A stretch of 47,427 nucleotides of DNA from Reclinomonas americana ATCC 50394 (Eukaryota): contig PS015121.1 in assembly GCA_048213135.1 (NCBI GenBank), positions 175,562 to 222,988 of the forward strand, written 5' to 3'. The position numbers and the translations under genes are program-made. The notes beneath the pieces were generated by a model. That model did not search any database. It was not told the DNA's origin and saw only the letters and a list, made by a program, of their open reading frames with translations. Positions 1 through 47,290 of the stretch are shown one piece after another; within the stretch, counting starts at the first letter, position 1; every line of letters begins with the position of its first letter.

Positions 1-3000
1 ATACCTTGGGGTTGAGTTCGTACTTGCGCACAATCTGGAACACCTGGTTGGAGGAGTTGAGATCCTCACGCAGGTGGGTCATGGCGGCCGCCAGCGTGTT
101 GCGGCACACAGTCTTGCCTCCGCACGACGGTCCGACAAGCATGACGCCGTGGCGCACATTCAGCGTCTCGTACAGCTGAATGATCTTGGTGAGGAAGCGC
201 GGCACCGGCTGCAGGCTCTGCGACGCCAAGTCGCGCTCAATGGCCTGCTGCAGCTCTCCGTAGTCGTGCTCGGGAAGTGTGACGCCGGGGAACAGATCCG
301 ACACAATGGCCTGGAACAGCGGCACATCTTGGGCCAAGAACTTGGGGATGTCTGTGTGTGAGAGAGAGAGAAGGAGAGTGAATAAAAATCACAGATGACA
401 AAAAATGCGNNNNNNNNNNNNNNNNNNNNNNNNNNNNNNNNNNNNNNNNNNNNNNNNNNNNNNNNNNNNNNNNNNNNNNNNNNNNNNNNNNNNNNNNNNN
501 NNNNNNNNNNNNNNNNNNNNNNNNNNNNNNNNNNNNNNNNNNNNNNNNNNNNNNNNNNNNNNNNNNNNNNNNNNNNNNNNNNNNNNNNNNNNNNNNNNNN
601 NNNNNNNNNNNNNNNNNNNNNNNNNNNNNNNNNNNNNNNNNNNNNNNNNNNNNNNNNNNNNCAAGCGCCTACGCACTGCTGTCGCGCATGGCACGGATGA
701 GCAAGAGATCCTCGACAATGTTGGGATTCTGGCGCTTCAGCGAGCCGGCCATGACCAACACACTCTTCACGGCACGCATGCCAAAGTCGTAGTGATCCTG
801 CGACGACAGCTGCTCCGATGACAACTTGTAGAGCTGGACCATCTTGCGTGAAAGCAGCTTGGCGTTCTCGAAACCCTCCGAGAACAGCACGACCTCGGCA
901 ATGAGTCGGTAGTCGGGAATCATACAAGCGACAGGTCGGAAGAGCGACTGTACACGCAAATGATGAGTCTCGTGCATCACGTGCAGGCGTGTGTGCACAC
1001 ACACAGAGGGAGTAAGCAAACCTTCAGATTGTCGGGCAACTCGGTACGACCGGCGTAACCGGGGTTCATGGTGATGAAGAAGCCGCAAGTGTGACGGACG
1101 GCAATGTCACGCCCCTCAAAGTACATGCGCGGCGTCTTCTTCAACAAGGCCGTGCGGATCTCTAGCACTTGTGTGGCAATGACGGACAACACCTGCAGAG
1201 GAGATAGCAGATCATCGGTGAGCAAGAGATGGCGATGGCGCGGTGAACGAACAACATGGCAATTACCTCAATGCCGATGCGGTTGAACTCGTCGAAGCAG
1301 CACCAAGCGCCGCACATGATGAGGCCGGTGAAGAAGGTGGACATCATGAGGTACGTCACACCCTCGGAACAGTTGAAGACCTGCGCGCCAAACACACCAG
1401 CGATTAGCACAACAATCACAGAATGCAGACATGCATGCGTGCACACGCACCACACACTGGCGGCCGAGCGACTTGGCCAAATCCTTGGTGGTCTCGGTCT
1501 TGCCCGTTCCGGCGGGACCGGCAGGCGCACCGCCGAGCGTCAGTTGCAAAGCACCGGTCAGCGTCATGTCTGTCGTGGAAAAAGTGAGCAGAAAAAAGAA
1601 AGATATGACTTGATCGTTCCCGCAAGAGCGCACGCAACAGATGCGATCCGTCAGCGGCGTAATGACGAGACGCGGCTGTGCGCCGAGGTACTCGTAGCCG
1701 TAGTAGAAGCACGAGTTCGACTGGCGCACAAGGCAGTCGTTGACTTCGTCGTCCCAGTAGTAGCGCAGCTGCTTGACCCAGCCAAAGTCGGCCGGTCGTG
1801 ACACGCCGTCCTCAATCATGTTCTCCACCACATCACGAGCGTGCACACTGATCACAATCAGCGCTCCGAGCGTGATACGCAGACGCGAGTCAATGTCCGT
1901 GCGTGTCAGTGCAGCCAACTTGGCCAGTTGCTCAATGGACTGTGGCGGTGGTCAGAAGGAGGAGGAGGAGGCGGAAGAAGCCCCAAAGTGAACAGGCAAA
2001 ACAAACCTTCTTGTAGTAGTCCTTGAGCTTGTGCGAGCCCTCATCGCCGTCGAGGCACTCGGTGACCTCTTGCGCCCAGAAGATTTGCGCCACCGTCAGC
2101 ACAATCTGGGAGGCGTGTGAGCGCATCCACTCCTCGAATGGTTTGGTGGGGTAGTCGAGCACGGACTGGTAGGTGAGATCGCGCAGCGAGACCACCATGC
2201 GCTCCTCTACTTCTGTCAACCACTTTTCGACGGCGCCACGAGCGGCCAGATTCACGCCCATCGACACATGCTCGCCCTCGGGCGACACCAGCTCCTCAAT
2301 GCCAATGTTGTCCGCCGCAAAACCGAGCTCCTTGATGCCGTCAAAGCACTTGCCCATGTACGGCTGCACCACGAGCGGGTTATTGTTCTCGGCAAGAATG
2401 GCCAGCAGATCGTCGTTCGACAAAAAGTAGAAGCGCGGGAAACCCTGACGCTTCTGCTCCAGGAAACGATCGAGACCCTTTTGCACAATGGCCAGCGACT
2501 TGTTGCAATCCTTCAGCTTGTTCAGCAGACCGGGGGCTGTGGTTGCCGGCAGCGCCTTCGGGCTGTCGAATGTGGACTTCATGATCTCTGTGTGCGACAG
2601 CGGTGAGAGGGCGGAAGAAAACAAAGGTGAAGTGGGCGGAGCATGCACGTACCCTTGAAGGTCTTGTCGACCACCATGAAGACCTTGGACTCCTCGACCT
2701 GGCGCTGGATTTCCTTGGATGAGAAGATACTCTCCAAGTACAGCCAGTCGCGCTGGCAGGCCATCCACTCGTCGAGCGTCTTGGCCATGAGTGCCAGATT
2801 CTGATCCCACTGCTCCACGCGCTGCGCAGCAACAACGAAATAGGATACAGAGAGTCAGAGCCAACTCTCGCGTGTCACACAAAACGATGCTGTGCGGGCA
2901 CTAACCGCTCGAATGGGACCGACAAAGCGCGAGCCCATGATGGAACCGACAGTGAGGCGCGAGTCATCGAGTTGCTCAATGATTTCGTCGAGGCCGCCGA

Positions 3001-6000
3001 GAATGAACACGTTGCCGTGCTGGTTGAGCGTGTACTCGGCCACCTCCCACACGTCGGCGACCTTGCGCAGCAGCTCTTCTAGGGCCGCCAACTGCGACGC
3101 TTGCAACGACAGCTGCGCAACTTGGTCCTTCTCTGCGCAGGGAGAAAGGGAGAGAGTGAGTGAGTGGAATGATGGCAAAACAGAGACAGACTTGCAAACA
3201 AAAAGTAGAGTGATGCGCAACTGCCCAACAAATTCGTGTCAATGAGAGCGCCGAGAGTGAGCTCCTCCGACTCGAGTTGCACACCGAGGAGTGCGTCGAC
3301 CTCGGTCATGTGCGCCGGCTTGTTGCGCAAACTCGGGTTGCACAGATCCACCAGAACCGGCACCACCTCCTTGAACTCCTCGACCATGGTCAACAGCTTT
3401 GGTGCCACGGGGTTGTTCGGCAGCGCCTTGGTGACCTGATTGGCGGTACGGTGGAACTTGGCCACTTCCGCCTCGATCACATCCGCATCCATGTCGCTGT
3501 GGTCGTTGCGATGAGTAAACGAGTGCCACCAAGAGAGAGAGAAAGAGAGAAGAATAAGAGGCCTCACCGGAACACCAGTGCGTTCCACTCCTTGTGCATG
3601 ACGGTCCAGTCCTTGATGGAGCGCCACAGCTTGTACTTTTGACCGACAGAGCCCGTCACCGACTGCACCACGTCGAAGCGATCCGGTGGCATGTTCAGCC
3701 GCTCTTGGTACGTCTGTGGTCGAGTGAGACATTGGCTGGTGCGTGGTAAAGAAGCATGCAACAACGACGCAACTCCCAGTTGTTCGGCACGCGATCGCTT
3801 GTCCGACAGGTCAGTCTGCACGGAATCGATAAACGCCAGCACCTCGTCCATATTGGCGTCGGGGTCGCTGATCGACTCGTTTTGGTCGCACTTGCGACCC
3901 AGCTGATCAATGGCGGTCTTGAGCTCGGTGATTTCGCGATCGAGTTCCACCTGGAAGCGGCCGACATTGTCGTCCTTGGTGTCCTCGGCAAACGAGTGTG
4001 TCTCGCGCAGCTCCTTGAAGGTGTTGACCGTCTGGTTCTTGTAGAACTTGAGCTCGTCGGGTGGCACCGGAATCGACTGCTTCTCCATGAGCTCGTACAA
4101 GTCCTTGACGTCGGAGAACTTGGTCTCGAAGTCGTTGAGTTTCTGCGTGACCGCCTCCAAGTGGTCCAAGTAGAAGACAAAGTCGTCGACCTGAGGCGCC
4201 AAGACAAAAAATTCAGTAAAAAATATACGAATACTGCGCGCATACGTGGTGCCACACGCACCGACTTGGGCCGATTGGCAATCGACTGGTGGCTCTCGTG
4301 GAGCTCCGAGAAGAGGGCTCCGGTCTTGGACTTGGCCAACATCGGCAGCAAGTCGTAGATGCCCTGGAGGCAGCGCTCGGGTGAGGGCGCCACGTTCGCC
4401 TTCAGGTGCTCTGTGTCGACACGGAAAATGCCAATCAGGCGACGCAGGCGCATCGTCTGGATGTCGGCCAGCTGTTGCTTGTACTTGACGATTGAGTCGG
4501 AGAAGAACTCGAGCGGGTGGTCTTCCTCGCGCAGCCGTGCAATGTCGAGGCGGCGGTTCTCGATAAACAGGCGACGGAACGGATCGAACTCGACGGCGTA
4601 GTCGTCGACACGGTCGCAGTTGATGCGCAGAATGTCGGCAATGCGCTCGCTGTAGTCCTTGTAGGCTGCGTTGCCGACAATGAGCTGCTCCAGATCGGGG
4701 CCCTCGCCGAGTCCCGAGTCCTCCTTCTTGTCGGTGACCAGCGGGCGCACGTACGAGTCGAATTGACTCTGCGGCGCGACACAATGAGTGACCGTGCGGG
4801 GGGAAAGAGACGAAATACACCTTGTTTTCTTGGCTAACCTCCTCGAGCAAACGGTCGAGACCGGTGACCGCCGACACGTACTCTTGCAGCAGGCAACCGA
4901 TGCGATCGAGGAACTCGTTGACGTCGGGTGACGAGATGAGGTTGTCGTCGAGCAGTTGGATATCCACCACAAAGAGCGGATTTGACTTGGGCTTGTTGGC
5001 GTGCATAAAGTCGTGCTCCTCGTGCTCCACCTCGTCGGCGTCGGGCTTGTTGAAGAGCTCCGTCATCACCTCCAGCAGGTTGCCGACAGAGCCGACGCAC
5101 ATCTTTTCGAGCGCATTGACCACCAGGTAATCGCACAACTGGATAAAGCTGGCCAGCTTCTTGCACAGTGCGCGGCGCGTGGCCAGATCGGTGAACGAAA
5201 TGGTCGGCTTGCTGGGGTCGGTGCCTGACGACATGGCCGAGGCGATCTTCTTGACCTCGTCGTCGGCCTCCGCACTGCGGGTTTCTCGAGAGTGTGAGTG
5301 TAAAGCAGAAGGGTGGAAGGATGGGCTTGCATGCACGCACCCTTCGTGTTCCTGCTCAATGCTCTTGTTGGCGGCCACCATAAAGTTCTGGCAGCCGTCG
5401 AGCACCGTCTGTGTGACCGAGGACACAATCTCGGCCATGGTGTCCTTCAGTTCCTCCACACGCGCCAATTGCTGCGTGTAGAACTTGTCGAGAGTCTGCG
5501 TGTCACCGCGCCCCGTGGTGCGGAAGAAGCGCAGGTTGGCCAGGCGCACGCAGTGGCGGCGCACATCCAACAACGACCTGGACAGCACATCGTGCAAGTG
5601 GAAGAGATTGGCCTCGAGGAAGTCGCGGCAGTAGGTCGCACGCTTGGCGCGCGTGTACGTCTTGAGCGAGTAGTAGCAGCGCCACACCTGCGTCGCGGAA
5701 GAGTGCGTGAGTGCAACCGAGGAAAGGGGAAGTATTGGCGACGAAACACACCTTGAAATTGCGGAAGAAGCGGATCTTGGCAATCGTGGAGAAGCGCTCG
5801 TATTCGCGCACCCACTGATCCAGCGGCGTAAACTCGGCCTCGCCACTCACGAAATGCGTGACACCCGACGCCGACAGCGTGTAATAATTGTCGAGATTGC
5901 GTTGCGAGTGCGGCACAATGACCAGCGAGTAGGGGTTGTAGCAGTCGCGCAGCGGATCGCGCAGCGTGTTGTTGAGGTAGACAAACTCCAGCGTCGACGG

Positions 6001-8025: not shown

Positions 8026-8056
<31 letters not shown>

Positions 8057-11000
8057 ATTTTTTGCGGCGCAGGCGCTGCTCACCGCCGTCTCGGCGCCGC
8101 ATTGTGAAATCCATGGAGGCGTGCTGTTGACTTGTGCGCGCGTGGTCTACAACATTCACTTGTCGTCGCCCAACGCCGTTATCCAGTCGACGGCCAAGGC
8201 CACACTGTCACTGATGATCAATCACGTCTTTCAGCGCATGGAGCAGGAAGTGGTGCGTGCGATTATTTTCGCTCTGTCTTCGAATTCGAGCACAGAGTGT
8301 ATAATAATCATTGCGTGCGCAGGCCCGCAAGGCACCTCTCGACCCTGGTGTGTTTGTGAATCGCAACATCTCCCTGGAAGTCGCCTCCACATTTGCCACG
8401 GCGGCCTCGGCTGCCGTGGGTGGCCTGCACGGTGCGAATGGGCAAGCGCCGCAGCGACCCGACGAGGTGTTTGACGAGGAGGAACAAATGAGCCATCGCG
8501 AGTTGCGCACGCTCCCTTTCTCACACACCGCCTGCTCCCACACTGGCTGTGCACTCACATGCGTACTCACCACACTCAGTGAGGCTGGCGAGTCGGCGGC
8601 CGGCAGCGACATGACCGTGCTGCAAAAGGACGCGTACCGTCTCTTCCGCTCCCTGTGCCAGTTGTCGACACGTGACATTCCCGAAGAGTGCGTCGCCACC
8701 TCTGACCGGAAGCGGTTTCGGTGTCGTTGTGTTTGACTCTCACACCCGTACGTGGCACAGAGCGGAGCCCGATTCTATTCTCATCCGGTCGCGTGTGCTC
8801 TCGCTGGAGTTGCTGCGCGGCATTGTGGAACAAGCAGGACCGGTGTTCCGCACCACGGAAAAGTTTATTGGTCTCATCAAGCAGTACCTGTGCGTGTCGC
8901 TGGTCAAGAACTGCGTCTCGACGATCCCACCCGTCATGCAATTGTCGCTGTCGATTTTCCACTCGGTGTTGCACGGCTTCAAGGACCACCTGAAGGGCGA
9001 AATCGGCATCATGTTCACCAACGTGCTGCTGAAGATTCTCGAGTCGGAGCTCACCTCGTTCAACCAGAAGACGCAAGTGGTGGAGACGCTGCTGAAGATC
9101 TGCCAGGACTCGGAGCTGCTTGTCAGCATCTTCCTGAACTACGACTGCGAGTTGCACTCGACCAATGTGTTCGAGTCGATTGTGTCGCACTTGTCGGAGC
9201 TGGCTCGTGTTCCGCAGCAGAACATGGCCTGGTTCAATCCGCAACAACAACAGGCCATTCGTCGACTGGCACTCGATGCTCTGGTCAGCATCTACCGTTC
9301 GCTGGTCGATTTCTATCACCGCATGGCGGCCGAGAAGGACGATGCCACCAAGTCCGAGTTGGACGGTGGGTTTTTCTGCTGCGCCGACGGGCACCTTTTT
9401 TTTTATTTGTGACTTACCAGCCTGTGTCACCGACACACAGGTGATGGGGCACCGACTGCGGCCGCTCCAGCGGCTTCGTCGGCGTGGGGAGCGGGAGAGA
9501 GTGAGGGTGCGTCGGGGTCGGGCTCGTCTTCGGCCGCCGCCGGCTCGTCGACTCCAGCAAGTGGCGGCAGCAGCAACATGCAAGTGCGGTCGCGTGCCAT
9601 GACCACCATGACGGCGCCGTCGCTGGAGACCATCGAGGGAGGACCGGGCACACGACCCGCCGTTGCCGGCAAGTTCGAGTTGCAAAAGATCAAGAAGGTC
9701 GAGTGGGAGTCAGGTGCGTACTGCGGAGGAAAGAACTCGTCGATTCGCCATCTTACCTTACTCACACGCTCTATGTGGCACAGGTGTGCAGCTGTTCAAT
9801 CAAAAGCCAAAGAAGGGCATCCAGTTCCTCATTGCCAACGGACATTTGGACGAGGAGCCGGAGAAGGTCGCCAAGTTCTTCCTCGACTGCGACACCCTCG
9901 ACAAGGCCGCCATTGGCGAGTACATGGGCGATCCGTTGCGTTCTCCTATTTTGGGCCCTCTTTGTTTGTTGGAAGGTGGAGTCGGCTCATGCTGGAATGT
10001 GTGTAGGGACGAGTTCAATCGCAACGTGCTCTACCGCTACGTCGATATGTTGGATTTCACCAACATGGAGCTCGATCTTGCTCTGCGGTTTGTTTGCTGT
10101 GCAGAGCCGTGTGTTGCTTTCTGCGTGCGTGTGTGCTTACTGCTGCGGGTGGTGTGTTAGTGACTTCATGTCGCGATTCCGTATTCCGGGCGAGGCGCAA
10201 AAGATTGATCGTATGATGGAGAAGTTTGCCGAGCGCTACTGCAAGAACAACCCAACAGCCTTCTCGTCTGCCGATACGGCCTACGTGCTGTCGTTCTCGT
10301 GCATCATGTTGCACACGGACGCGCACAATCCGGCCATCAAGAATCGCATGACCAAGGAAGCGTTTTTGAAGAACAACCGCGGCATCGACAACGGCAAGGA
10401 CGTGCCACCGCAGGTGCTGTCGGGCATTTACGATCGCATCACCACCACCGAGTTCTCCATTCGTGGCGAGCCCACGCGTCAGCAGCTGGAGGCCACCACC
10501 AAGAAGGAGAAGGACCACGGTATGTGTTTTTTTGCAACGCAGAGCTCTCTCTTCAAGTTGCCTCCCCGCCGCTCATCACCACATTGCGTGCAGCGGCCGC
10601 GGTGGCCAACCCGGCGCAGAAGCGTCGTGTAGGTCTGACGCGCGAGACGCAGGCCATGTGGAAGGATGTGGAGTCCATGATCAAGATGCAAGGCGGCAAG
10701 TCGTCGACCTTCCATGTGGCGTCGCACGCCGGGCAGATTCGACCAATCTTTGAGATCTCGCACCCGCTCATTTTTGTGCCGCTGCGTGAGATTCTTGATC
10801 GAATCCCCGACCCGCGCATGATCAACCTCTGCTTGCTGGGCTTTGAGAACGCCATTCACATTGCATGCCTCTTCTCGCTGGATCGCGAGCGCGACGATTT
10901 GGTGGCCGCACTCGCTGGCTACGCCGATGTCAGCTCGCAGACCACGGTGACGCACCGCACGATTGAGAGCACCAAGCTCGTGCTGCGCATCGGTCTGAAC

Positions 11001-14000
11001 GAGGGCGACTTCCTCGACAAGTCGTGGGTGCAGGTGTGTGTGAGGGAGGGAGAGGGGGAAGGGAGAGAGGGANNNNNNNNNNNNNNNNNNNNNNNNNNNN
11101 NNNNNNNNNNNNNNNNNNNNNNNNNNNNNNNNNNNNNNNNNNNNNNNNNNNGCGTGGGTTTGTGGTGATGACTCAATTGGTGTCTTGTGTGCAGATTTTG
11201 AGTTGCATCTCGCAACTCGAATTGGTGCAGGCCATGTCGTCGGGCATCCGCTCTCTCAATCCCGGCCGATCAGAACGGTGTGTGAACTCGTTCATGGTGT
11301 CGCAGCAAACTGTTTATTTATCATTGTGTGTGTGTGTGTGTTCGTGCTGCAAACAGACCGCGCACCTCCAAGGATCGGCCACTGCCGTCGGTGAATCCGG
11401 ACGACTTCCGTGCGCAGGTGATTTGGCCGCACGAGGGGAAACGAGTGAGAGAGCACGCATAGCTTACTCACACAGTACGCGGGTCACAGACATTCGAGGA
11501 CTCGGAAATGGCCAAGCGACTCGGCGATTCAGCAATTGTGCTGAACATCGATCGCATCATCACCAAGAGTGCCGAGCTCGACAGCGTTGCGTTCTGCCGC
11601 GCGCTCGCCAGGCGCTCACTCTGCATGAGCGCTAACGGCGGTCTGTCTACATGCAGAATGCTGTCGTGTGCTTTGTGGAGGGTCTGTGCGCGGTATCGCG
11701 GGAAGAAATCAGCTCGACGAGTCAACCACGCTTGTTCAGTTTGCAAAAGATTGTCGAGGTTGCCTACTTTAACATGTCGCGCATTCGTTTTGTGTGGAGC
11801 CGCATCTGGCAGCACATGGCGGAGCACTTTGAGAATGTTGCGTGACGTGGGCGCACGCCAGACGATTGTGACTCGCACGCCACTGACGTGTGTTGGTACG
11901 TACACAGGTCGGTTGCCACCAAGAGGGCACCATCGCCATGTATGCGTTGGATTCGTTGCGACAGCTGGCCATGAAGTTCCTGGAGAAGGACGAGTTGTCA
12001 AATTACCAGTTCCAGCGCGATTTCCTCAAGCCGTTCCACTCGATTCTGATTCGCAGCCGCAATGCTGACATTCGGGAAATGGTGCGTTGTGTGGAGACGT
12101 GACGTCAAAAAAGCGGATATCGACCACGTGTGTGTGACTTGCAATGTTGATTTTTTTGCAGGTTGTGAGCTGCTTGCAAGTCATGATGTTGGCACGGTCG
12201 TCCAACATTCGGTCCGGTTGGTGGCGTATTTTCCAGGTGCTGGGCGACGCAGCCAAGGACTCGGCAGGTTGGTGGTCCTGTGTGGGCAAGAGAGCTGCTC
12301 GTCGGCATGTGTGTAACTCGTGTGAGAGCGCAGAGAAAGTTGTGCGGTTGGCGTATGAGACCACACAGCAGGTCTTGTCGGGCTACTTCCCGCTCATTCG
12401 CGACAACTTTATCGATTGCTTCCGATGCGTTTGCGACTTTGCGATGAACACGGCTGCTGTGGAGATAAGGTGGGGGTGTTCGTACGTGCAAAGCGGGAAT
12501 GCGTGTGTGCGTGTGTGCGTGGCTGACATGCGGCTGTGGTTGCTGCAGTACGGGTTCACTGCTCATGGCTGAGTGGTGCCTGGATCGAGTGGTTCGCGGA
12601 TACCTGGAGCCCAGCATTCCTCGACTCACCGCTGAGCCGTTTGTGGGAGAAGAGATCAAGCGCGACAGCAATCATGTGGCGCAAATCAAGTTGCGCGCTC
12701 AGCTGCATCATCTCGTTTCTACGATGCGTACTGATCTGTCATTCGCACATACTCGCAGCATGTCGTGGTTTGGTGGACCGCGCGTGGAGATTGTGGCTGA
12801 CATGCCGGCAGTGTACCTCGGCGATGAGGTGCCGCATGCCAACCTGTGGACCGAGTCCCTCAACATTCTGGTGCACGTGGTGGCCTCGGATCGCCGGTCG
12901 GTGGTCCGACAAGAGTTGCGGCTCCGTGAAACGCACCACCAAGTGTCGTTCCAATGGCACTCACTCGGTGTGCGTTGTGAATGTTAGGGCTCTGCAAACA
13001 ATAGCTCGCATGTTGCGAAATGTCGGCTGGGCCTTTGACGAGTCGCTGTGGAGTCAGTTGTTCCACAAGTTCTATATGGCACTGTTGGATCGCTTCTGTG
13101 CTCGTGGAACACCGACGGTTGCGTACGCCCGCGTTACCTGTGTGTGGGTGTGATGTGCGCTAACCACAAGGTGTGCACACAGACGGCACACTACGAGGAC
13201 TGGGTGCAGCAGACGGCACCGGCGCTGTTCGACAACCTGGTGGAGGTGTTTGAGCGATTCTTTTCACGTCTTTCACCCGTCTACGGCGATGTGGTTGCGC
13301 TGTTTGGACGGTGCGCAGTCCATGTCGATCTTCCTCCTCACCGAGAGTGCATCATTACTCATCCGTCATGCAGGTGCTTGCAATGCCTGGAACTCGGCAT
13401 GGGCCGTGTGGCTATGCGTGGTCTCCTGATGCTGCTGAAGCAGGCGGGGCCGCACTTCTCACCCGCCATGTGGGACACCACGGCAACGTTCCTGGCCGAC
13501 ATGTTGGACCGAACACGACCTCGCGTGTTTGTCAGCGATGGCGGCGAGCTCATTGTGCGTGACACGTTGCGCAAGGTCGAATCGGCTCCAATCCTCATCG
13601 GTGAGACGATCGATCGCTTTTGCTAGTTTTCGTGTCCGCTCCCCCCCGTGCTCATCTGTGATATTGTTTGTTCATTCTCTCGACAGTGCCGGCGAGCGTC
13701 GCTGATGTACGGGCGTCGCCTGCATCATCGTCAGGCAAGGCCACGCCCCAAGGCGGAGATGAGCAGCCAGCGGCCGCTGCTGCCGATTCATCCCACGGCA
13801 GTGGTTCCACTCCCGCTGCTCCTGCCGGTGATTCTGCGACTGCAGCGGCGGCAGCAGCGGTGGTGGCGTCGGCATCTGCCACGGGTCCTACGCTGCCGGC
13901 CACCGCCTCAGTGCCGTCGATGACAAGCGAGGCACTTAGTGGCTCGCCACTCACTCCGAAAGCCGACCCGTCGCTCTTCCAGGTGTGTTCTCTCTCCCCT

Positions 14001-14778
14001 CTCTCTCACCCTGCATCGCTGTGCGTTCGTGTGTGTGCGTGTGCGACTCACGACCATCCTCAGTGCCACATCCAACCGCTGTTGGCGGGCGTGGTCGAGC
14101 AAGTACTGGCGGAGCACATGGGCTCGCTGGAGTTGCCGTTGGTGGAGCGCTTCCTCACCATGCTGGACGACACCTACCGCTATGTGTCTGCGTACAACAA
14201 GTTGTGGGCGCGGCGCGAGAGGCAACTGGAGGAGGGCCGGAAGGCGGAGTTGACGCTGCTGACAGATCTGGAGCGCGAGGTGGCGCTGCACTACGTGGAG
14301 GCCGTACATCGACTGTACACTGGCCACGATGCAGCCGCCGAGGCGCTCTCCGAGTCGCTGTTCTTGGAGTTGAGTTTTTTTGTGGATGTACGCGGGCGGG
14401 GCATGCTGTCAGTGCACTGACTGACTGACACACATGTGCAGGTTCTCCGAGGAGCTCTTCCTGTCGTACTTGGAGGCGTGCGAAGAAGAGAAGGCGTCAT
14501 CGCTGCCGTCTGAACTGAAGCAGCATGTGAGCATGACGCCGGTGGTGGTGCGTGTGCTCAACATGATTTACCCGCTGCCGAATGCCAAGGTCAGTTTTTT
14601 TCTGTCTGCACGCTCTCCTTGTGTTGTGGTCAGCTGACACACACCTCCGCAGTTCCTCAACGCATGTCGCAAGTTCCCGCGGTGCCTCACGGACATGCTG
14701 ATGTGCGAATCGGCGAGCGTACGCGGTGGTCTTCGCAAGGTCTTTGAGAAACTCAACGAATTGTTGTTGCTCTCGTGA
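7095..14778 (+). CDS. Large Arf guanine-nucleotide exchange factor, BIG/Sec7 family (DCB-HUS-Sec7-HDS), about 25 introns
   Basis: Starts [18 protein letters not shown] box FLNYDCEL. Sec7 catalytic motif [21 protein letters not shown], then [24 protein letters not shown] motifs [18 protein letters not shown] and [16 protein letters not shown]. Stop TGA at 14776-14778. Confidence 0.95.
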
Positions 14779-34399: not shown

Positions 34400-37300
34400 A
34401 TGGCCAACACCTTCCTCAACTTTGAGTACGAGCAGAAAGTCACTCGTCTGGCTGTTGCGTACGACACACGCCACTCTCCTCTCCTCTTGTCCCTTTTCTG
34501 TCTCTCTTTTTTTTACATCTTTCACCCTTTGTTGCACGCGCGCGCTCTCTCTCTCTCACGCACACACCCACGCTCACAGGTGAAGCCGACGATGAGTCTC
34601 GCCGAGTCTGTCAACGAATTCTGTCGCGCGAGTGGCGTGGACTCGGATTCCTCACGCTTGGCGCTGACACATCAAGGTCATCCACTTGACATGTCGCTGC
34701 AGGTGAGGAGGAGGAGGAGGAGCAATGCTGACTTGGCGTCCTCCAGTCGCTGACACTCACCTCTGTGTGCGNNNNNNNNNNNNNNNNNNNNNNNNNNNNN
34801 NNNNNNNNNNNNNNNNNNNNNNNNNNNNNNNNNNNNNNNNNNNNNNNNNNNNNNNNNNNNNNNNNNNNNNNNNNNNNNNNNNNNNNNNNNNNNNNNNNNN
34901 NNNNNNNNNNNNNNNNNNNNNNNNNNNNNNNNNNNNNNNNNNNNNNNNNNNNNNNNNNNNNNNNNNNNNNNNNNNNNNNNNNNNNNNNNNNNNNNNNNNN
35001 NNNNNNNNNNNNNNNNNNNNNNNNNNNNNNNNNNNNNNNNNNNNNNNNNNNNNNNNNNNNNNNNNNNNNNNNNNNNNNNNNNNNNNNNNNNNNNNNNNNN
35101 NNNNNNNNNNNNNNNNNNNNNNNNNNNNNNNNNNNNNNNNNNNNNNNNNNNNNNNNNNNNNNNNNNNNNNNNNNNNNNNNNNNNNNNNNNNNNNNNNNNN
35201 NNNNNNNNNNNNNNNNNNNNNNNNNNNNNNNNNNNNNNNNNNNNNNNNNNNNNNNNNNNNNNNNNNNNNNNNNNNNNNNNNNNNNNNNNNNNNNNNNNNN
35301 NNNNNNNNNNNNNNNNNNNNNNNNNNNNNNNNNNNNNNNNNNNNNNNNNNNNNNNNNNNNNNNNNNNNNNNNNNNNNNNNNNNNNNNNNNNNNNNNNNNN
35401 NNNNNNNNNNNNNNNNNNNNNNNNNNNNNNNNNNNNNNNNNNNNNNNNNNNNNNNNNNNNNNNNNNNNNNNNNNNNNNNNNNNNNNNNNNNNNNNNNNNN
35501 NNNNNNNNNNNNCCCGCGCGACGCACCGGAACAGCACAGAGCTCCCGTCCCCGAATCCCATGTAGCGAAGTGTGCGACCGAGCTCGACATCAGTGAGCTT
35601 GCGCTGCTCGAACTGCAACACTGGTCGACCGGCCTCGTTCTGTGTGAAGCTCTCCGGTTGCGACGCCTCACTGCACAGCCAAGGTGAGACGTGTGAGGCG
35701 TCAGAGGTGATGGCGTCACCACGCAACAGCTGCTGAAGCATCTCCAACAGAGTGCAATCGCCATCCACAAAGCCCTGCACGCGTTGACGCGACGGAGTCT
35801 GCACGGCCACAGTCACGGTAATAGGATCTGCGGCGAAGTGGTCAGTGCGCTTCAGAGAGCACACAGAAAGAGGGGTGTGTGTAAACCTGTGGAGGCCGGC
35901 ACCACTTGCAAGCGAGCATTCGGAGTCAAGTTGGCATATCGCAGCTGNNNNNNNNNNNNNNNNNNNNNNNNNNNNNNNNNNNNNNNNNNNNNNNNNNNNN
36001 NNNNNNNNNNNNNNNNNNNNNNNNNNNNNNNNNNNNNNNNNNNNNNNNNNNNNNNNNNNNNNNNNNNNNNNNNNNNNNNNNTGAGGGGGGAGCGGGCTAG
36101 GCGATGCTCTCGATGACTCACAGACTGCTGTCGCGTGTAGGTTGTCCTTTGAGGCTGCCCGAGTGCCCGAGCCAGTGGTTGCGGCGCCTGCTGCTGCCGC
36201 TGCTGCTGCCGCCGCCGCCGGTTCTACAGCGTCTGGCAGGTATGGCCATGATACCTGCGAGCTCCCACCTGTCCACTCAGAGGAACTAAACATTGTGCGT
36301 GCGATGCAGTGCCGTCACACCCATGGCAGTCGACTCCGCGGTGCCGCCTCCGGCTCCCGCCTCTCCTGGAACGATTGCGCGGCAAGCCGGCGTGTATCGT
36401 GTGCCGGCCGCTGTTGGTGCTGGTGCGTTCATGTCACGTGTTGTCGGTGTGTTGTCTGCCTGTTGTTGCCAACGCGCGTGACCGCCGCAGTTCCCGATCC
36501 CGACGAGTCGGATGACTTCTTCGAGGTCACTCCCGAGGATTTGCTGCTGGCCGCCGACAGCCTGGCTGCCCGTGTGCACACGACCTTCCGCCGTCGCGGA
36601 GGACCAGCTCCCGAGGACACGTCGTTGGTGCCGGTGCGGTTACCCTATTGTTGCTGGTTGTTGTGCCTGCGTGCCTCACTTCCACTCGTCGCGGCAGACA
36701 ACCGTTCGAGTCAAGTTCGGCAACGGTCTCATGCTGCAAGCAACGTATCGCTCCGATGAACTTGTGCGCGAGCTGTTCGACTTTATCCGCAGCCATTTGC
36801 GCGATCCGTGGATCCCGTTCTGCGTCGGTGAGTGAGAGAAATGCTCAACAAGCTCCGCGGTAGTCTCATAAATCGTCACTCTGCAGCCATTCCCACCTCC
36901 ACGGCCTCTACGGTGACCGACGAGACGCTCACATTCCGGCAAGCAGGCCTGGTGCCATCCACGGTGGTCGTTTTCAAAAGTGACGGTGCGTGCATGTGTG
37001 TGTGTGTGTGCCGTGCCTTGTCTCCACGAACTCACTGCTTGTTCTGCAGCTGGCTCGGCCGCGGAGCTTCTGAAGCCCGAGGTGTTGGAGGAGGCGACCA
37101 GTCCACCACCGCGTCCGTTTGTTGCGCAAGCCGAGACACCACCGGCAGCCGCTGCTCGGGGGTCACCATCGGCAGCCAGTGGCAGTGGATCGTCGTCCTC
37201 GGCGGGCTCGTCGTCCGGTGGTGGCAGGCGATTGGGTGATCCGGCCCCCAGTCGGCTGGTCACGTCTGCGGGTCCACGCAGACTCGGCAGCCGGGCAGAG

Positions 37301-37565: not shown

Positions 37566-40500
37566 TCAACATGGTTCAGTACCGAATCCGTACGCTGGCG
37601 CCGAGCTGCGCAGCTCGGGGTTGTAGGCTGCTGGACCCGGCGAAGCGTCGTCCATCTTGAGAGGCGTGCGAACGCCAAAGCTAAAGCTAAGGGTTGTGTC
37701 CAGCGGATGAGGATCATGTGCTCCCGGTCCCTGCACGAGCAATGGTGGGTGAGACCTACTGTTGTCGACGGGGAAGATGTTTTCAGCACATAGACGAACC
37801 ACTGGATTTGCATTTTCCGGCAGCGGCGTACGTTTGCCCATGGTCCATGCAGCACTGCGACGCTTGACGGGAGTCACCTCTGGACTGTACCTGCAAGACG
37901 TTTGTGGAGAAATGTAAGTCATGTGGTGCTCACAAAACCCCTGCGTGCAGTGCAGCACACGAACCATGCCGGGCCAGGGTTGATATCTGGCTTCGGTTCC
38001 GGATGCCGACCCTTCATCGACGCTCCTTCGGTCTTCCACAGAGTGCCACGCACGGCATATTCGCCGGGGCCAGGCAAGCGATCTGACAGGGCGCAACACT
38101 AATTGAGTGAGGTTGCACTGCTGAACAGCGGCATGCATCGCTTGACACACCTGTGCGCGGCTCCGGTAGTCGCTGAGCAATGGTGTACGCCGGTCCTTGC
38201 GGGCCAACATTGACGTCGTACGTGCCGGCTCCGGGAGTGTCAAACGCACCCTGCGCGCACGATCGACATACAAAGTAAGATGCCAATGAGCAGTTCCGAC
38301 TACCACCGTCGTCACGTGTCCACTCACCGTGTGCGTGCGAGACGAAGGGAATCCGCCCATTGTGTAGGCTGGAGTCGATGGCCGCATCGCTCCCAGCACG
38401 TCGTAAGCACCTGCATTTTCTCACGGGCGTGAGACTCCAATCCCAACTACAGCCGGACGTGCTGCCGTGTGTGTGTGTGTATCAAAACAACGAACCAGGA
38501 CCAGGAGCAGCCGATCCGTTGCCTATTTCCGCCGACACACAGGCACACATAAGTAAACTGCACGACACCAGAAAGGCAAAAGGAAACAACACGCACCGAA
38601 AACAGAACCGTGCACGCCTGCCATTGTGAACGCCGGGGTGCTACTCGGACGCACTGGCGAGTACGCACCAGGACCTACATCACAAGAAGCAACACTCCGA
38701 TAAGCAGAGAAGCGCTTCTGTGGTTGACAAGGTCCACACGAACCAGGGATGTTGTTAGAGCCAAATGTGTCGCCATGTCTGCCTGAAATCGAGTACGCAG
38801 GAGCCACGCCAACGGTGGTGCCCAAGTCGTCTGCGCCAAACAAAACGGTTCAGCACAGTGATCCGTGAGAGTAATGCATGGCAGCAAGATTGCTCTCACA
38901 TTGACCGGGACCAGCGTCACTGCCACCACCTGATGGCTCATGATGCCGTGCCGACATTGTCCAGCTCGGCGTTGCGGGGCGCACCGCAGCATCCGAGACC
39001 TGGTGAGCTCCAGGACCCGGTGCAAGCGACTCGTACTTGACTGGCGAGCGACCGGCCATGGAGAATGCCGGCGCCGACTTGCCAAGAGGCTCCAAGACAT
39101 CGTACTTGGGAGCCGGTGTTTGCATGGGTTCCTGCTCTGCGTGTCGCCCTGCAATAGTGAAACCGCCACTATGCGGTAGCGAGACGTCGTACTGGGCACA
39201 CAAGTGATTGTCAGCACGGATCTCACACGAGGTGCTGCGATATCGCGACTCACCGCTCCTGGACCAGGTGCCAGCTCAGCCTTCTGTGACGCTGGCAATC
39301 CACCAATCGTGAATGCAGGCGCCTTGGCCTTCCCTGCGTCAGCACTCACGTCGTACTGCGGTCCAGGTGTGTCGTTGCCTGGATCACACTCGTCAGCACT
39401 CACAACACTACTCTGCTTTCCTCTCTCTCTCTCTCTCCCTCTACCCTCTCTGTGACCGCACGCACCCTTGGGCTCCGGATACCGTCCACTGATCGTGTAT
39501 CCCGTCTTCGACAGTGTCGTTGGAATCTCATACGCACCGACACCTGCGCCAAGCATAGGGTGAGCACAGATCACCCCAATCCACGTCATGTCATAACCCA
39601 GAAAACACACCTGGTGTGGTGCTCTTGGCCATTGGATCGCCAAACGACGTCCGACCAGACAGCGTGTATGCCGGTGCCTTGCCAATCTCCGATCCCAGTG
39701 CATACTGACCCGGTCCGACTGGATTCGGTGCAGCAGATACACCCACTCGACTTCCCATTGTCCACGCCGGTGATTTCCGGAAGAAATCCTCAGCATGTGG
39801 TGTGTGCGCACCAGGTCCAGGTGCCTTGTCTTCGATCTTCATCGGTGGCCGCGACGAGATGCTGAATCCAGGACTGCCACTGCCAAACGGCTTCGCCACA
39901 TCATATTGCGGACCAGGTGTCGATTGTGGCTCTGCACGCACACCATCATCATCATCCGTGTGAGCACAACTTCACACCACCCCACCCGACTGCTCTTCAA
40001 AAGATTCGCAACTCTCCAACGATGTGCGATGACCCATCGTCCACCCAGGTGTCTGCGGCGGCATCTCGATCGTGTACTGCACATTCCAATCCACACAGTC
40101 AGTTCGCTGATGTGTGGCTGCTGCTGCTTCTGCGTTCATGCGACTCACCGCTCCTGGACCGGGTGCCAGCTCAGCCTTCTGTGACGCTGGCAGTCCACCA
40201 ATCGTGAATGCAGGCGCCTTGGCCTTCCCTGCGTCAGCACTCACGTCGTACTGCGGACCAGGTGTGTCGTTGCCTGAATCGCACTCGTCAGCACTCACAC
40301 TCTCTCCCTCTACTCTCTCTGCGACCGCACGCACCCTTGGGCTCCGGGTACCGTCCACTGATCGTGTATCCCGTCTTGGACAGTGTAGTTGGGATCTCAT
40401 ACGCGCCGACACCTGCACCGAGTAGGTGAGCACACACCACCCGAATCCACATCCCAGATAAATGAGTACACACCTGGCGTCGTGCTCTTGGCCATTGGAT

Positions 40501-43431
40501 CGCCAAACGACGTCCGACCAGACAGCGTGTACGCCGGTGCCTTGCCAATCTCCGATCCCAGTGCATACTGACCCGGTCCGACTGGATTCGGTGCAGCAGA
40601 TACACCCACTCGGCTTCCCATTGTCCACGCCGGTGATTTCCGGAAGAAATCCTCGGCATGTGGTGTGTGCGCACCAGGTCCAGGTGCCTTGTCTTCAATC
40701 TTCATCGGTGGCCGCGACGAGATGCTGAACCCTGGACTGCCACTGCCAAACGGCTTCGCCACATCATACTGCGGACCAGGTGTCGATTGTGGCTCTGCAC
40801 GCACACCATCATCATCATCCGTGTGAGCGCAACATCACATCACCCCACCCGTCTGCTCTCTAAAGAGTTCGCAACTCTCCAACGATGTGCGATGACCCAT
40901 CGTCCACCCAGGTGTCTGCGGCGGCATCTCGATCGTGTACTGCACATTCCAATCCACACAGTCAGTTCGCTGATGTGTGGCTGCTGCTGCTTCTGCATTC
41001 ATGCGACTCACCGCTCCTGGACCGGGTGCCAGCTCAGCCTTATGTGACGCTGGCAGTCCACCAATCGTGAATGCAGGCGCCTTGGCCTTCCCTGCGTCAG
41101 CACTTACGTCGTACTGCGGACCAGGTGTGTCGTTGCCTGAATCACACTCGTCAGTACTCACACTAGTCTGCTTATTTTTCTCTCTCTCTCTCTCTACCCT
41201 CTCTGTGACCACACGCACCCTTGGGCTCCGGGTACCGTCCACTGATCGTGTATCCCGTCTTGGACAGTGTCGTTGGAATCTCATACGCGCCGACACCTAC
41301 AAACACCGAGCACTGGGTGAGCACACATCACCCAAATCCACATCACACACAAGAAAGAGTACACACCTGGTGTGGTGCTCTTCGCCATTGGATCGCCAAA
41401 CGACGTCCGACCAGACAGCGTGTATGCCGGTGCCTTGCCAATCTCCGATCCCAGTGCATACTGACCCGGTCCGACTGGATTCGGTGCAGCAGATACACCC
41501 ACTCGACTTCCCATTGTCCACGCTGGTGATTTCCGGAAGAAATCCTCAGCATGTGGTGTGTGCGCACCAGGTCCAGGTGCCTTGTCTTCGATCTTCATTG
41601 GCGGGCGCGACGAGATGCTGAATCCAGGACTGCCACTGCCAAACGGCTTCGCCACATCATATTGCGGACCAGGTGTCGATTGTGGCTCTGCACGCACACC
41701 ATCATCATCATCCGTGTGAGCACAACTTCACACCACCCCACCCGACTGCTCTTCAAAAGATTCGCAACTCTCCAACGATGTGCGATGACCCATCGTCCAC
41801 CCAGGTGTCTGTGGCGGCATCTCGATCGTGTACTGCACATCCAAAGGTCATACAGTCAGTTTGCTGCTCCAGGGCGTCACACGCCTGCATTCATGCGACT
41901 CACCGCTCCTGGACCAGGTGCCAGCTCAGCCTTCTGTGACGCTGGCAATCCACCAATCGTGAATGCAGGCGCCTTGGCCTTCCCTGCGTCAGCACTCACG
42001 TCGTACTGCGGTCCAGGTGTGTCGTTGCCTGAATCGCACTCGTCAGCACTCACAACACTACTCTGCTTATTTTTCTCTCTCCCCCTCTACTCTCTCTGCG
42101 ACCACACACACCCTTGGGTTCCGGATACCGTCCACTGATCGTGTATCCCGTCTTCGACAGTGTCGTTGGAATCTCATACGCGCCGACGCCTGCATCGAGT
42201 AGGTGAGCACAGATCACCCCAATCCACGTCATGTCATCACCCAGAAAACACACCTGGTGTGGTGCTCTTGGTCATTGGATCGCCAAACGATGTCCGACCA
42301 GACAGCGTGGGGCCACCAGGTGACTTTGGGAGCGACACATCGTACGCGCCAGCTCCAGGAGAGTCTGTCTCATACTTTTCTTCGTAGCGACTGCAGCAGC
42401 AACGTCAGCATGGCAGAGTTGCGTGCACCGAGTGTGAGATGAGAAACGCACCCAGATATTGAGTACTGAGGAGCAGTGGGCTTGACTGTGTCGACTTTGG
42501 GCGGGTTGTCTGCGCAAGAAAGATCAATCAGGGATCGACGCGACCTCGCAGCATGCAGTGCACGAAACATGCGGCGGGACCGGGTGAATCGCTCCGCAGC
42601 TTGGTTTCAGGGCGCGCCTTGATGGATGCTTTGGGGCCCTCGCCAATCGTGGAAGGCTTCTGGTAGGTGCCCGGGCCAGGCGTTGTTGGCCCTACGAATT
42701 CTCTTGTTGAGACAAGGAGAACGGATGCAAGCACGACCGCAGTCACCGCACGTAACTTGCGGGCTCCTTGCCACGACCTGAAATCGTAAACCGTGGTGAC
42801 CGCTTCTGCATCGATGGTTCATATGCCCCTGAAAACACGCAGAGAAATACGACACATGAAGTTCAGCGTCGGATCTGCAACGCTCATGCCCCTCTGAGAG
42901 TCAACAAGCCTAACCTGGTCCAGGCAGAACCTCTGTGCATAAACAACACGTACGCGTCAGACCCCAAACAAAACGCGCCGACAGAGACACGAAGAGTGAA
43001 AGAGCGACATGCCTGTCTTCTCCGAGTACCGTCCGTAGAACGACGCCTTGGGACTCTCGCCGATGCACGACTTGACCGAGTACTGAAGATCTCGCACGAT
43101 GAGTGAAAAACACAGGATTTACCCGAGTCCGAGTGCACGCTCAACGCAACAGCGCCTGGGCCTGGCGTATCCGCGTTGCAACCGTCGATCGGACGCCCTC
43201 GTCGTCGCGTGTGCGGCTGCCAGCAACCAATCGCACATCAGCACGGGTGGGGCAATCGCCTTGTGGCACACACACACACACACGAGCGTCACTCACCTGC
43301 AACGGCCCGGCGAACGGCTTCGGTGCTGACTGTGGTCTGGCGCGAGTCTGCGACGAGCTTGGACGCGCGGACATGGGCGGAGTCGGAGGCCGGCGACCGG
43401 CACTCACAGGTCGCCGAGCTGGTGGCGGAGC
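37566..43431 (-). CDS. ODF3/SHIPPO (PGP-repeat, CIMAP1-like) axonemal protein with dozens of PGPGxY repeats; its first two exons lie at 44779-44945 on the inverted segment
   Basis: Recurrent TPGPGAY/PGPQY...PAFT(I/M)(G/S)GR units of about 30-35 aa throughout the spliced frame. Stop TGA at 37566. Confidence 0.88.
39240..42310 (-). repeat. Intragenic tandem duplication of a ~880-bp, 4-exon/4-intron unit (about 3.5 copies)
   Basis: Anchor gcgactcaccgctcctggacc at 39245, 40140, 41003 and 41895 (periods 895, 863, 892). Exons are near-identical and introns still alignable. Confidence 0.95.
42933..43012 (-). other. GC-AG intron followed by an 18-nt microexon (42915-42932)
   Basis: The frame YSEKT-E-VLPGPGAY is kept by CAG|GCATGT...CACAG; the nearest GT alternative shifts the frame. 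Confidence 0.7.
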
Positions 43432-43545
43432 CTGTCCGAACACACGCGACGCACGCATACATACATACGCCCGTGTTAGAGAGGAGGGGGGTGGGAGGAG
43501 AAATGAGGAGATCTTGACCAANNNNNNNNNNNNNNNNNNNNNNNN

Positions 43546-44406
43546 CTGTCGTTCACGCCCTCCACCTCGCCGACGGTGGTGCTCTGCGTGACGTGCTCCA
43601 GCAACCACTTCTACCTGTTTGATTGCGAGCAGTGGGCGCTCACGCCGTGGAGTGTGCGCAACGCGAGGAAACTGCCTCTGGAGTTCCTCCATCAGCCGGC
43701 TCGCATCACCTGGTCGGGATTCGATCCGCAGTCACCCGACCGATTGTTCCTCGCCTCGACTGCCTTCTTTTGTGCCATTGATGTCAGCAACGTTGCGCAG
43801 CAGCCGCCGCTTTCGCGATTTCGTCGTGCATCCCCGTCTCATTTCTGTGCTCTTGTTGCGTGCGTCTCCACAGGATGCGGTGGTTCCGCCGCGATTGCGC
43901 ACCGGTCTCACCAAGTTCAACCCGCCTCCGATGCGTGTACGCAAGGAGGGCGCACCGTTTGTCGAAGCCGAGATGGTGGCGCGTCCGGGGGCCTCCGGGT
44001 CGTCGGAATCCCCATCAGCTGCCGCAGATACGGTGAGTCACAGTGCTGCTCTGTGCGTGTCGGCTGCTGTGTCGCTCACACGATTCGTCACGTCTGCAGA
44101 AGAAGGGAAACAAAGTGGATGTGGAAATGGCGAGCGAGTGCAGCGATGGTCCACGCGACGAAAACGAGGCGGCGCATGTGTTTGGTGAACCCGGCTTCCG
44201 CTTTGTCAGACGGTTCGTGCGTCGTCTGCAGTGGGAGGATGGCGGTGGTGGAGAATGCCTTGGTGTTTACAGTTTTCTGCAGATATCAACCGCTGCTGTT
44301 TGTCGACTTTTTGTGCGAGGGCGAGATGGTGGTGGTCGAGCGTCCATGGGTATCCGTCATGGACGCATTGCCAGGCATGCTGCCACACAAGAGATACCGC
44401 ACATAA
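43546..44406 (+). CDS. UTP4: C-terminal exons of UTP4, on an inverted gap-bounded segment
   Basis: LSFTPSTSPTVVLCVTCSSNHFYLFD..LTPWS and RYQPLLFVDFLCEGEMVVVERPW..LPGMLPHKRY*, the UTP4/cirhin C-terminal signature. Confidence 0.85.
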   Translation: MSFTPSTSPTVVLCVTCSSNHFYLFDCEQWALTPWSVRNARKLPLEFLHQPARITWSGFDPQSPDRLFLASTAFFCAIDVSNVAQQPPLSRFRRASPSHFCALVACVSTGCGGSAAIAHRSHQVQPASDACTQGGRTVCRSRDGGASGGLRVVGIPISCRRYGESQCCSVRVGCCVAHTIRHVCRRRETKWMWKWRASAAMVHATKTRRRMCLVNPASALSDGSCVVCSGRMAVVENALVFTVFCRYQPLLFVDFLCEGEMVVVERPWVSVMDALPGMLPHKRYRT

Positions 44407-45433: not shown

Positions 45434-47290
45434 CGAGCTCACGGGGTACTGGAAGAGCCGCGGGACGAGGCAATGGTGCTGCAACGGAATCGGAGGTTGA
45501 GCACGCATAACGAGGGGCAAACAAATCCAAACGCAATCACCTTTAGCAGATCCAAATTGAAGACGTGAATGCTGCCGGCCACGTTGGCCGCCGCCAGCCA
45601 CTGACCGTCGGGGGAGACTCGCATCTGGTGAATCAGCGACGTGGATCGGCGATCACTGGAGGCACCCTCGCTAGCGCCGCGAGCCGAAGCACTCTGACCG
45701 TCGGCCACGGTGCGATCTGCAACTCACGTAAGATTGTGCATTCAACAACAACAACAACAACCACAACGAGAGTGAACTGCACCTGGTGGCATGGAGAAGA
45801 TGTGTGTGAGGGCACCCGTTCGCACATCGACAAACAGAATGCTGCCACCGGGCACGGCCAGGAGCAAGGAGTTGCTGTCGGGAGTGAAGGCTGCCAGATG
45901 CGCGCACGCAGTGCTCAGCGAAAACGGTTCCGCTTCGTCACCATCGTCAAAGTCCGCGTCCAGCATCTCTACATCGCGTCGTTGCTTCACTTTCTGCAAG
46001 CGGACCTCGCCGTTCTGCGCGAATGAGAAGTGGAATTGAGGGGCAACAGCTGACAACAAGCCAATAAGACCACGACAGTTACGACAAACCTCCTGCTTCA
46101 GAATGCGGTACAAGCGCGTCCCTTCGCGGTCACGGCACGAGAACGCCAAGTATTCTCCATTCGGTGAAATGTCGGCACAGGAGATGTTGTAGGCCGACTG
46201 CACCGACGCGGAAACGAAGGAAGTGAGTGGAGGTGAGCGACAGAGCTGCACATCGCGGGAGGGTAGTAATGACCTTGCAGTAAAACTGCAGTAGCAGTTG
46301 GTGGTGTTGTGCGAGTGGCAATGCCGCGCCGACTTTGGCGTGCTCCAGCATCTCGTCATCATGGGCGGACGAACGCACAGCACCCAGTTGGTACAACTCC
46401 AGCATGTCGTCTCGCTCCACCAGCATCATTCGCGACTCGCGCGACAGGTGAATGATTCGGCGGTGCGGAAATGGTGGAACCTGTGCCGCAGAGGAGCGTG
46501 AATAGGAGCTGGCGGAAAAGAGTCATTCCGCAAGGCGAGGACACGTACGCACCTTGATGGGCTTTGAGGCATCAAAGAGTGCAATCGACACCATGTACAA
46601 CTGCGTATCAACGCTTCCGCTGCAAAGATACTGCACCACCAAAGTAGGTTGGTCGGTGGAACGCAGGGGGACAAGGCGTGAAAAAAACAGAGCAGACAGG
46701 GCGAACCTCACGACCAGTCGGAGTCATCAGCACCAACAACGCAGTAATTGCATGCGTGTGCGGTCTGCGCTTGCCGGCATACATCCACCCGTGACTCGAC
46801 TGCACCGAGCCGACGGTTTAGGAGAGTTGCATGCATGGTGATGACGGCACACACAAAGACGAGAGTACTCACATCTGCAATCTCCACTCGACGGTACATG
46901 ACAATCTTGTTGTCAACGCCACTGCGCGAGGTGGTTCAGCACCGCGAGACACGATTGCGCAGAAACAACAATTTGTACGAAACGTCGAAAACACCGTGGT
47001 TCGTGCACCCTCGCCCGCAGCCGCCACACAAGTCACATCCGCCGTATGATCCGTGAACGTGACCAACGCCACACCAACGCGTCCGTCCCAGAAGCGCGTG
47101 GACCCGCCCGAATCGCCAGTAACGATGGTCTCGTCACTGCGTCGACGATCAATAACCACTACTTCCCCTACCCACAACTACAATCGCACGCAACGGGAGC
47201 ATCATAATGGACCACACCACGGGCCGCCCACCGCGCCCCGCTCGCCCGCACTTGAGAGTCCACACGTTCTGCCCGGTGTGTGCATCATAC
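45434..47290 (-). CDS. UTP4: UTP4/cirhin (U3 snoRNP t-UTP WD40 subunit), central exons; 5' part lies beyond the right edge
   Basis: VVWSIMMLPDETIVTGDSGGSTRFWD, HTADVTCV..VFSTGVDNKI, RRPHTHAITAL, CADISPNGEYLAFS, VSPDGQWLAAAN..IHVFNL. Confidence 0.88.

Follow-up and report, generated by a model that had tools for sequence, protein, structure and literature searches.

Introns of the eukaryote Reclinomonas americana ATCC 50394 begin, in about one case of five, with a donor that looks displaced by one nucleotide, and our gene modeling and homology analyses of the genomic sequence confirm this donor, GTTGCG(T/C), as a real and routine second donor type in this genome. The stretch analyzed, referred to as the window, spans 47,427 bases of assembly GCA_048213135.1 (contig PS015121.1, positions 175,562 to 222,988 of the forward strand) and is compact, intron-rich nuclear DNA of ~58% G+C interrupted by eleven N gaps. 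An initial annotation of the window had listed 26 donors reading GTTGCG. The hexamer is present at 26/26 of these coordinates, of which 9 are + strand and 17 are − strand sites; for the latter, the coordinate given is the + position of the donor G. The related motifs GTTGAGT at 14369, GTTACGT at 42756, and GTTTCGT at 42568 and 46983 were likewise found in place. These rarer forms correspond to GTGAGT, GTACGT, and GTTCGT displaced by one base, and GTTGCGT itself equals the seven-letter string G/GTGCGT (the slash marks the exon–intron boundary) with its second G changed to T and cleaved one base earlier. We refer to GTTGCG and its relatives as the shifted class, and to the remaining donors as ordinary.

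Gene structures were modeled using a self-trained hidden Markov model whose coding states are three-periodic and which includes a shadow strand and treats intron lengths explicitly; in its donor-agnostic passes, the model demanded just GT and AG at the intron ends. GTTGCG was the top donor hexamer in the first donor-agnostic pass (9/75 introns) and after retraining (16/111), and it still ranked first when an acceptor and branch site model that is silent on donors was included (18/115 introns). Picking at random among the 6015 GT sites would yield 1.19 GTTGCG donors where 18 were observed (binomial 3e-16). The proposal also survives comparison with independent positional base frequencies, which predict 0.92 GTTGCG donors among 102 non-duplicate introns of 45–130 nt, against the same 18. 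The shifted class accounts for 20/102 to 27/124 introns, bearing out the earlier estimate of one intron in five. Out of 30 claimed shifted sites, the donor-agnostic pass recovered 18, together with one previously unlisted GTTGCG donor at 8502, and a donor-informed pass recovered 27, all except 28372, 28655, and 47194. The window holds 62 copies of GTTGCG, 27 on the + and 35 on the − strand. Eleven copies lie in sense exons and are left unspliced in the models (11955, which falls in a conserved exon, 13012, 13294, 13566, 29256, 29781, and others); the hexamer alone is therefore insufficient to specify a donor.

Homology offered a test of individual junctions. Every in-frame GT-AG alternative within 36 nt was scored against homologous proteins, namely the ArfGEF P0001 of a relative together with animal BIG1 proteins, dynein fragments, and ATAD2-like proteins, and the first round comprised 63 junction rows. 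To pass, a junction had to score 60 or more and lead every other donor by 8 or more. Of the 27 junctions that passed, 8 have GTTGCG donors, each preceded by A, C, or T, and the 19 others have ordinary donors, each preceded by G; the exon-end (−1) G was thus present in 0/8 shifted and 19/19 ordinary donors of the verified set (Fisher p=4.5e-7). In the axonemal dynein heavy chain gene on the − strand, the GTTGCG donors that passed open the introns 1570..1638 (tct/GTTGCGT; best score 216 vs 145) and 3133..3221 (gca/GTTGCGC; 81 vs 64), both of which were also called by the donor-agnostic pass. The BIG-type Sec7 ArfGEF gene on the + strand contributed 9935..10006 in the Sec7 region (tcc/GTTGCGT; 134 vs 120), 11586..11656 (agc/GTTGCGT; 120 vs 77), and 11837..11907 (aat/GTTGCGT; 191 vs 168). 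In the ATAD2/Yta7-like gene on the − strand, intron 28297..28372 (cat/GTTGCGC; 80, with its best rival donor at 64) was missed by the gene finder and found by homology, and the two introns 29859..29919 (act/GTTGCGT; 212 vs 201, with agreeing tblastn exon edges) and 30078..30148 (agc/GTTGCGT; 127 vs 109) fall within the AAA domain. GTTGCG was also best, by a smaller margin, in the dynein intron 3714..3773 (−, gga/GTTGCGT; score 55, the next alternative using the same donor) and in the bromodomain intron 27323..27381 of the ATAD2/Yta7-like gene (−, gtc/GTTGCGT; 70 vs 64), so that in total ten GTTGCG sites were the best of all alternatives. Ungapped alignment blocks run across nine well-conserved junctions, those at 1638, 3221, 3773, 9935, 11837 (35/49 identical), 27381, 28372, 29919 (38/49 identical), and 30148.

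The gene models place further members of the class. Introns called by the donor-agnostic pass include 8502..8579 in the ArfGEF gene (+, cga/GTTGCGC), the site absent from the initial annotation; 14369..14441 (+, gga/GTTGAGT; homology 67 vs 65); 19081..19149 in a small gene (−, aca/GTTGCGC); 31213..31277 (−, gat/GTTGCGC), with low-complexity flanks and the same donor in the best homology models; and 43792..43873 (+, aac/GTTGCGC). The donor-informed pass alone called 12915..12987 (+, aga/GTTGCGG; weakly best by homology, 44 vs 41), 42510..42568 (−, cat/GTTTCGT), 42692..42756 (−, caa/GTTACGT), 43083..43150 (−, gct/GTTGCGT), and 46922..46983 in the WD40-like gene (−, gac/GTTTCGT), for which the donor-agnostic pass picked 46992. 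At 34454..34579 (+, gct/GTTGCGT), the passes disagree on the acceptor (34579 or 34707). Three of the listed sites had been described as duplicates of one, and they are indeed copies within a tandem unit of 863–895 nt: 39932..40012 (−, aga/GTTGCGA; copy 1, donor-informed pass only, 100% identical to the 41768 copy), 40795..40875 (−, GTTGCGA; copy 2), and 41688..41768 (−, GTTGCGA; copy 3), the latter two called by the donor-informed pass and by repeat comparison.

Other entries call for caution. The reservation already attached to three in-frame sites was well placed: the introns 12690..12758 (+, caa/GTTGCGC; donor-agnostic pass), 27711..27773 (−, gcc/GTTGCGT; acceptor and branch pass), and 35671..35727 (−, gct/GTTGCGT; gene finder) measure 69, 63, and 57 nt, and reading through them meets no stop codon, so that, judged from sequence, they may be retained. 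A base other than G precedes GTTGCG at 24/26 listed sites, as had been claimed, and the two exceptions are 13118..13182 (+, acg/GTTGCGT; donor-agnostic pass) and 20968..21039 (+, gtg/GTTGCGT; donor-informed pass only), where the donor-agnostic pass picked the in-frame position 20965, 3 nt upstream. The candidate intron 28587..28655 (−, gtc/GTTGCGT) carries the motif, with homology alternatives scoring 59–61 and 3163 frame-compatible exon chains. The GTTGCGT at 47188..47194 (−) is rejected as a donor: the nearest acceptor would create a 27-nt intron in the wrong frame, the shortest other called intron being 48 nt, and no pass called 47194.

Donor sequences divide along the same line when no labels are supplied. 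An unsupervised two-class expectation-maximization fit assigned 74% of donors to [ACG][AC]G/GT[GT][CAT]GT, with a −1 G frequency of 0.90, and 26% to N/GTTGCG[TC], with a −1 G frequency of 0.10. The proposed link between the shifted class and a missing −1 G is reproduced in the donor-agnostic set, in which G ends the exon at 1/20 shifted and 45/52 ordinary donors (p=1e-10). G precedes 2/27 donor and 4/35 non-donor copies of GTTGCG (p=0.69), which refines the link: at −1, the shifted class does not avoid G, and the base is simply unselected. Exon ends other than G are followed by 7 GTGCGT-type donors vs 24 donors of the shifted class. Ordinary donors, 75/82 of which have the exon-end G, lean almost wholly on it, and verified examples have intron starts as loose as G/GTGACAG, G/GTGGGGA, and G/GTAATTG. 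Outside the GT dinucleotide, the shifted class holds ~8.1 bits of information vs 5.7 bits for ordinary donors. T follows the hexamer at +7 in 16/27 donor copies of GTTGCG vs 6/35 non-donor copies (p=0.001), paralleling the +6 T of ordinary donors. The filler base at +3 is T in 18 cases and C in 2, of which one belongs to a questionable 37-nt intron; G and A are absent (0 each). This preference does not follow from availability, as the window holds 62 copies of GTCGCG, 75 of GTGGCG, and 62 of GTTGCG. Taken together, the donor statistics indicate that this genome runs two donor grammars, one combining an exon-end G with an intron start that follows GTG(C/A/T)GT only loosely, the other a free exon end with a rigid GTTGCG(T/C).

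Downstream of the donor, the two classes could not be told apart. A branch box of the form CTCAC/CTCAT/CTGAC, at a median distance of 19 nt, is common to both (branch scores p=0.34); the acceptor is CAG in 23/27 shifted and 79/82 ordinary introns; and intron length (median 69–71 nt) and pyrimidine content are alike. No class difference emerged either in pairing between the intron 5′ end and the remaining intron sequence, in the first base of the downstream exon, or in per-base folding energy. Removal of the ten GTTGCG introns that were the best of their alternatives restored both frame and homology. By these measures, the shifted introns are, as far as genomic sequence can tell, genuine major-type (U2-type) GT-AG introns.

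We next consider how such a donor might be read. For the duplex energies in this and the next paragraph, the U1 5′ end was taken to be canonical, which may not hold for this organism. On this assumption, 79/82 ordinary donors pair in the canonical register, with a mean of −7.04 kcal/mol. The shifted class pairs poorly there: 1/27 sites fold in the canonical register, and 11/27 are most stable in the +1 register. Recognition one base out of register, which we regard as having about an even chance of being correct, gives the best account of the donor’s anatomy. The intron G+1 would occupy the slot usually filled by the exon-end G, T+3 would then take the T+2 slot, and the GCGT block would keep its normal place; catalysis would cut one base upstream, where the sole GT lies. 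An unselected −1 base is expected under such a reading, because G+1 fills the exon-G slot. The T-specific filler and the enrichment of T at +7 favor out-of-register reading over a free bulge.

Several observations weigh against this account, some bearing on the mechanism and others on the sites themselves. Canonical U1 pairs with the shifted sites (mean −1.66 kcal/mol) more weakly than with 600 random non-donor GT sites (−2.85 kcal/mol), and the +1 register is preferred at only the 11/27 sites given above. The exon positions −3 and −2 support neither register (log-likelihood ratio −3.4 and +0.6 nats), T is more frequent at the shifted −1 position (~0.30) than at the ordinary −2 position (0.08–0.15), and the near-invariant C at +5 is not accounted for by pairing to either U1 or U6. 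By homology, GTTGCG was not the top donor at 8502 (61 vs 63) or 12690 (26 vs 30), both in poorly conserved segments, and it tied at 13118 (34 vs 34) and 27773 (41 vs 41). Furthermore, 12/30 claimed sites are supported by the donor-informed model only or are unverified, and all counts are drawn from one 47-kb window with about ten genes. A canonical U1 5′ end binds too weakly on its own, and the reading may be done by the ordinary U1/U6 or by a variant small nuclear RNA. The earlier proposal of a second donor mode used where the −1 G is missing thus holds as regards a routine class tightly linked to non-G exon ends, but shifted or bulged pairing with an ordinary U1 is not acceptable as it stands.

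The rigid motif of the shifted class, with essentially no complementarity to canonical U1 and pairing below background, could instead mean that GUUGCGU has its own complementary partner, either a dedicated second U1-type small nuclear RNA (snRNA) or a U1 whose 5′ end is non-canonical, while ordinary U1 serves G/GT. The good fit of ordinary donors to canonical U1 suggests that the main U1 is canonical and that the shifted class is partnerless. A hypothetical 5′ end with three changes pairs with 26/27 sites in a single register at −10.2 kcal/mol, but such sequences were designed to fit, and their energies carry no weight as evidence. To our knowledge, eukaryotes show hardly any variation in the U1 5′ end, which counts against this explanation. 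Variant U1 snRNAs are expressed in humans (PMC3561869, PMC10870369). The window itself contains no snRNA gene at gathering scores, and a search at E up to 1 returned a chance CRISPR-repeat match as its sole result. We consider a variant U1 unlikely, and the same doubt applies to the broader proposal in which about a fifth of the major-type introns are handled by a reader of N/GUUGCGU of their own, either another U1-like snRNA or a U1/U6 pair that has been remodelled; if true, 5′ splice sites would be recognized in a third way besides those of U1 and U11, joined to U2-type branch and 3′ machinery. Selection might also take place mainly after U1, through U6, U5, Prp8, or an auxiliary protein, as an extreme split between exon-G (U5) and intron-motif (U6) recognition. 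The negligible U1 complementarity would suit this, and the way in which exon-end G and strength of the intron motif trade off fits the two-class model as set out in part of a review (PMC11732430). However, U6 would need an equal one-base displacement, and the window names no factor. We know of no pairing, in the normal register, between GUUGCGU and the conserved U6 ACAGA box, and this further lowers an explanation that we hold to be improbable. Formally, GT followed by T and GCGT is GTGCGT plus one inserted base, and ordinary U1 and U6 could keep the normal register if a single intron base, T+3 or T+2, were looped out; bulge registers have been validated in humans (PMC4856993). A bulged base should vary freely, yet the filler is nearly always T, and a normal register would hold or raise the preference for an exon-end G, yet the −1 base is unselected. 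The shifted class thus displays neither the free filler nor the normal exon preference of a bulged register, and the folding used for the −1.66 kcal/mol mean already permits bulges, which makes a bulge quite improbable.

Two further explanations were weighed. The sites could belong to minor-spliceosome (U12-type) introns whose donor has diverged, or be the ends of a mobile ‘introner’ family; a rigid donor without exon preference does resemble the U12 type. The branch motif, its spacing, and the acceptor match those of ordinary introns, however, and the U12-type branch box CCTT(A/G)A(C/T) (TCCTTAAC-like) occurs in 0/27 shifted introns; the shared length, branch site, and acceptor therefore argue that these are not minor-spliceosome introns. 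In an all-against-all blastn comparison of the introns, similarity was limited to the tandem-unit copies and to GT/CT microsatellites, and the lack of any other shared intron sequence argues against a mobile family. We regard this explanation as very unlikely. Alternatively, the class could be an artefact of gene calling, the true donors being nearby ordinary ones. The 12/30 sites missed without a donor model, the homology ranks at 8502 and 12690, and the failure of 47194 all lean in this direction. Against it stand the ten sites that beat their in-frame GT-AG alternatives, several with ungapped junction alignments, and an enrichment that appears without any donor model, which leave an artefact hardly credible.

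Genes in the window were identified using Pfam and protein searches unless stated otherwise. From left to right, these are the axonemal dynein heavy chain (1–6085, −), the BIG-type Sec7 ArfGEF (~7.1–14.8 kb, +), a haem peroxidase (15269–17104, +), the ATAD2/Yta7-like AAA-plus-bromodomain gene (25.7–32.9 kb, −; also by tblastn), a gene of tandem 863–895 nt units (39245–42309, −; gene finder and repeat search), and a WD40-like gene at the right end of the window (−). Protein searches did not return same-species proteins, the best identities being 61%, 51%, and 46% (proteins P0001, P0121, and P0339), and the genome appears to be without annotation in the protein collection searched. The nearest ArfGEF relative is the transcript-like record P0001, 61% identical in the query exon. 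A metagenome scan for the genomic loci of relatives yielded two loci at merely 36% identity, which were of no use.

Some features of these genes merit mention in their own right. The haem peroxidase has a single main exon of 1.6 kb with a third-position G+C of 0.81, in gap-free sequence adjoining the ArfGEF gene. Among the matches listed, its best are bacterial, with 43–50% identity; those that bear a name are Planctomycetota-type metagenome bins, and no name in the list is eukaryotic. These matches suggest that the gene may have been acquired horizontally. The tandem-unit gene consists of three to four units, 70–100% identical, with four introns conserved per unit, one of which has a GTTGCGA donor; the open reading frame 38678–39838 inside this gene has no Pfam match. 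In the gene at 17464–18409 (+), the last predicted exon (18088–18409) encodes a long Glu/Lys/Gly-rich low-complexity tail and may be a mis-call by the gene finder. Long (GT)n microsatellites are frequent and often intronic (47337–47418, 11325–11345, and within many introns), and GTGTGT, with 216 copies, is the commonest GT-hexamer of the window.

Out-of-register 5′ splice sites are rare curiosities in humans; here, they would be routine, at roughly every fifth intron. We judge the shifted class to be a high-frequency, species-wide counterpart of sites otherwise known as rarities, and one whose recognition ordinary U1 pairing does not explain. It would offer a natural system for asking how the cleavage site is set independently of the U1 register, why the exon-end G matters, and whether 5′ splice-site recognition co-evolves with snRNA 5′ ends. 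In practical terms, about one donor in five of this genome will be misplaced by gene finders relying on one donor matrix. A search of the main text of open-access papers for GTTGCG or GUUGCG together with splice or intron found nothing relevant.

Comparison with known systems places the shifted class near several of them. As in U12-type introns, the donors form a second class whose motif is rigid and whose exon end shows no preference; unlike in that type, GTTGCG is unrelated to (A/G)TATCCTT, and the branch box, spacing, and acceptor are those of the major class. Human shifted sites are reportedly rare, of the GUNAAGUAU type, and pair well in the shifted register. The class described here differs in its abundance (20–22% of introns), in having its own rigid GUUGCGU, and in pairing with canonical U1 below the level of random GT sites. 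The shifted U1 register itself is known from humans, as cited to Roca and Krainer 2009 in the section on U1 registers of PMC4856993, where validated non-canonical registers together make up 1.5% of human 5′ splice sites and the control oligonucleotide scores −6.5 kcal/mol. Insofar as that section describes the human register, the correspondence is close: G+1 falls in the exon-G slot, G at +6 and U at +7 take the places of +5 G and +6 U, the cut stays at GU, and the exon end need not be G. In bulged and asymmetric-loop U1 registers (Roca 2012; Tan 2016, as covered in the same part of PMC4856993), the intron signal also lies one base off the cut; the extra base of the class described here is instead T-specific, and the preference for an exon-end G is gone. 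Two main types of 5′ splice site, AG//GU and NN//GURAG, have been distinguished (Parker 2022, as outlined in part of the review PMC11732430). The two grammars of this genome resemble that division, as outlined there, in pairing an exon G with a loose intron start, or a free exon end with a strong intron motif. They depart from it in the nature of the strong motif, which is the local GTGCGT consensus moved one base downstream, with T as the filler.

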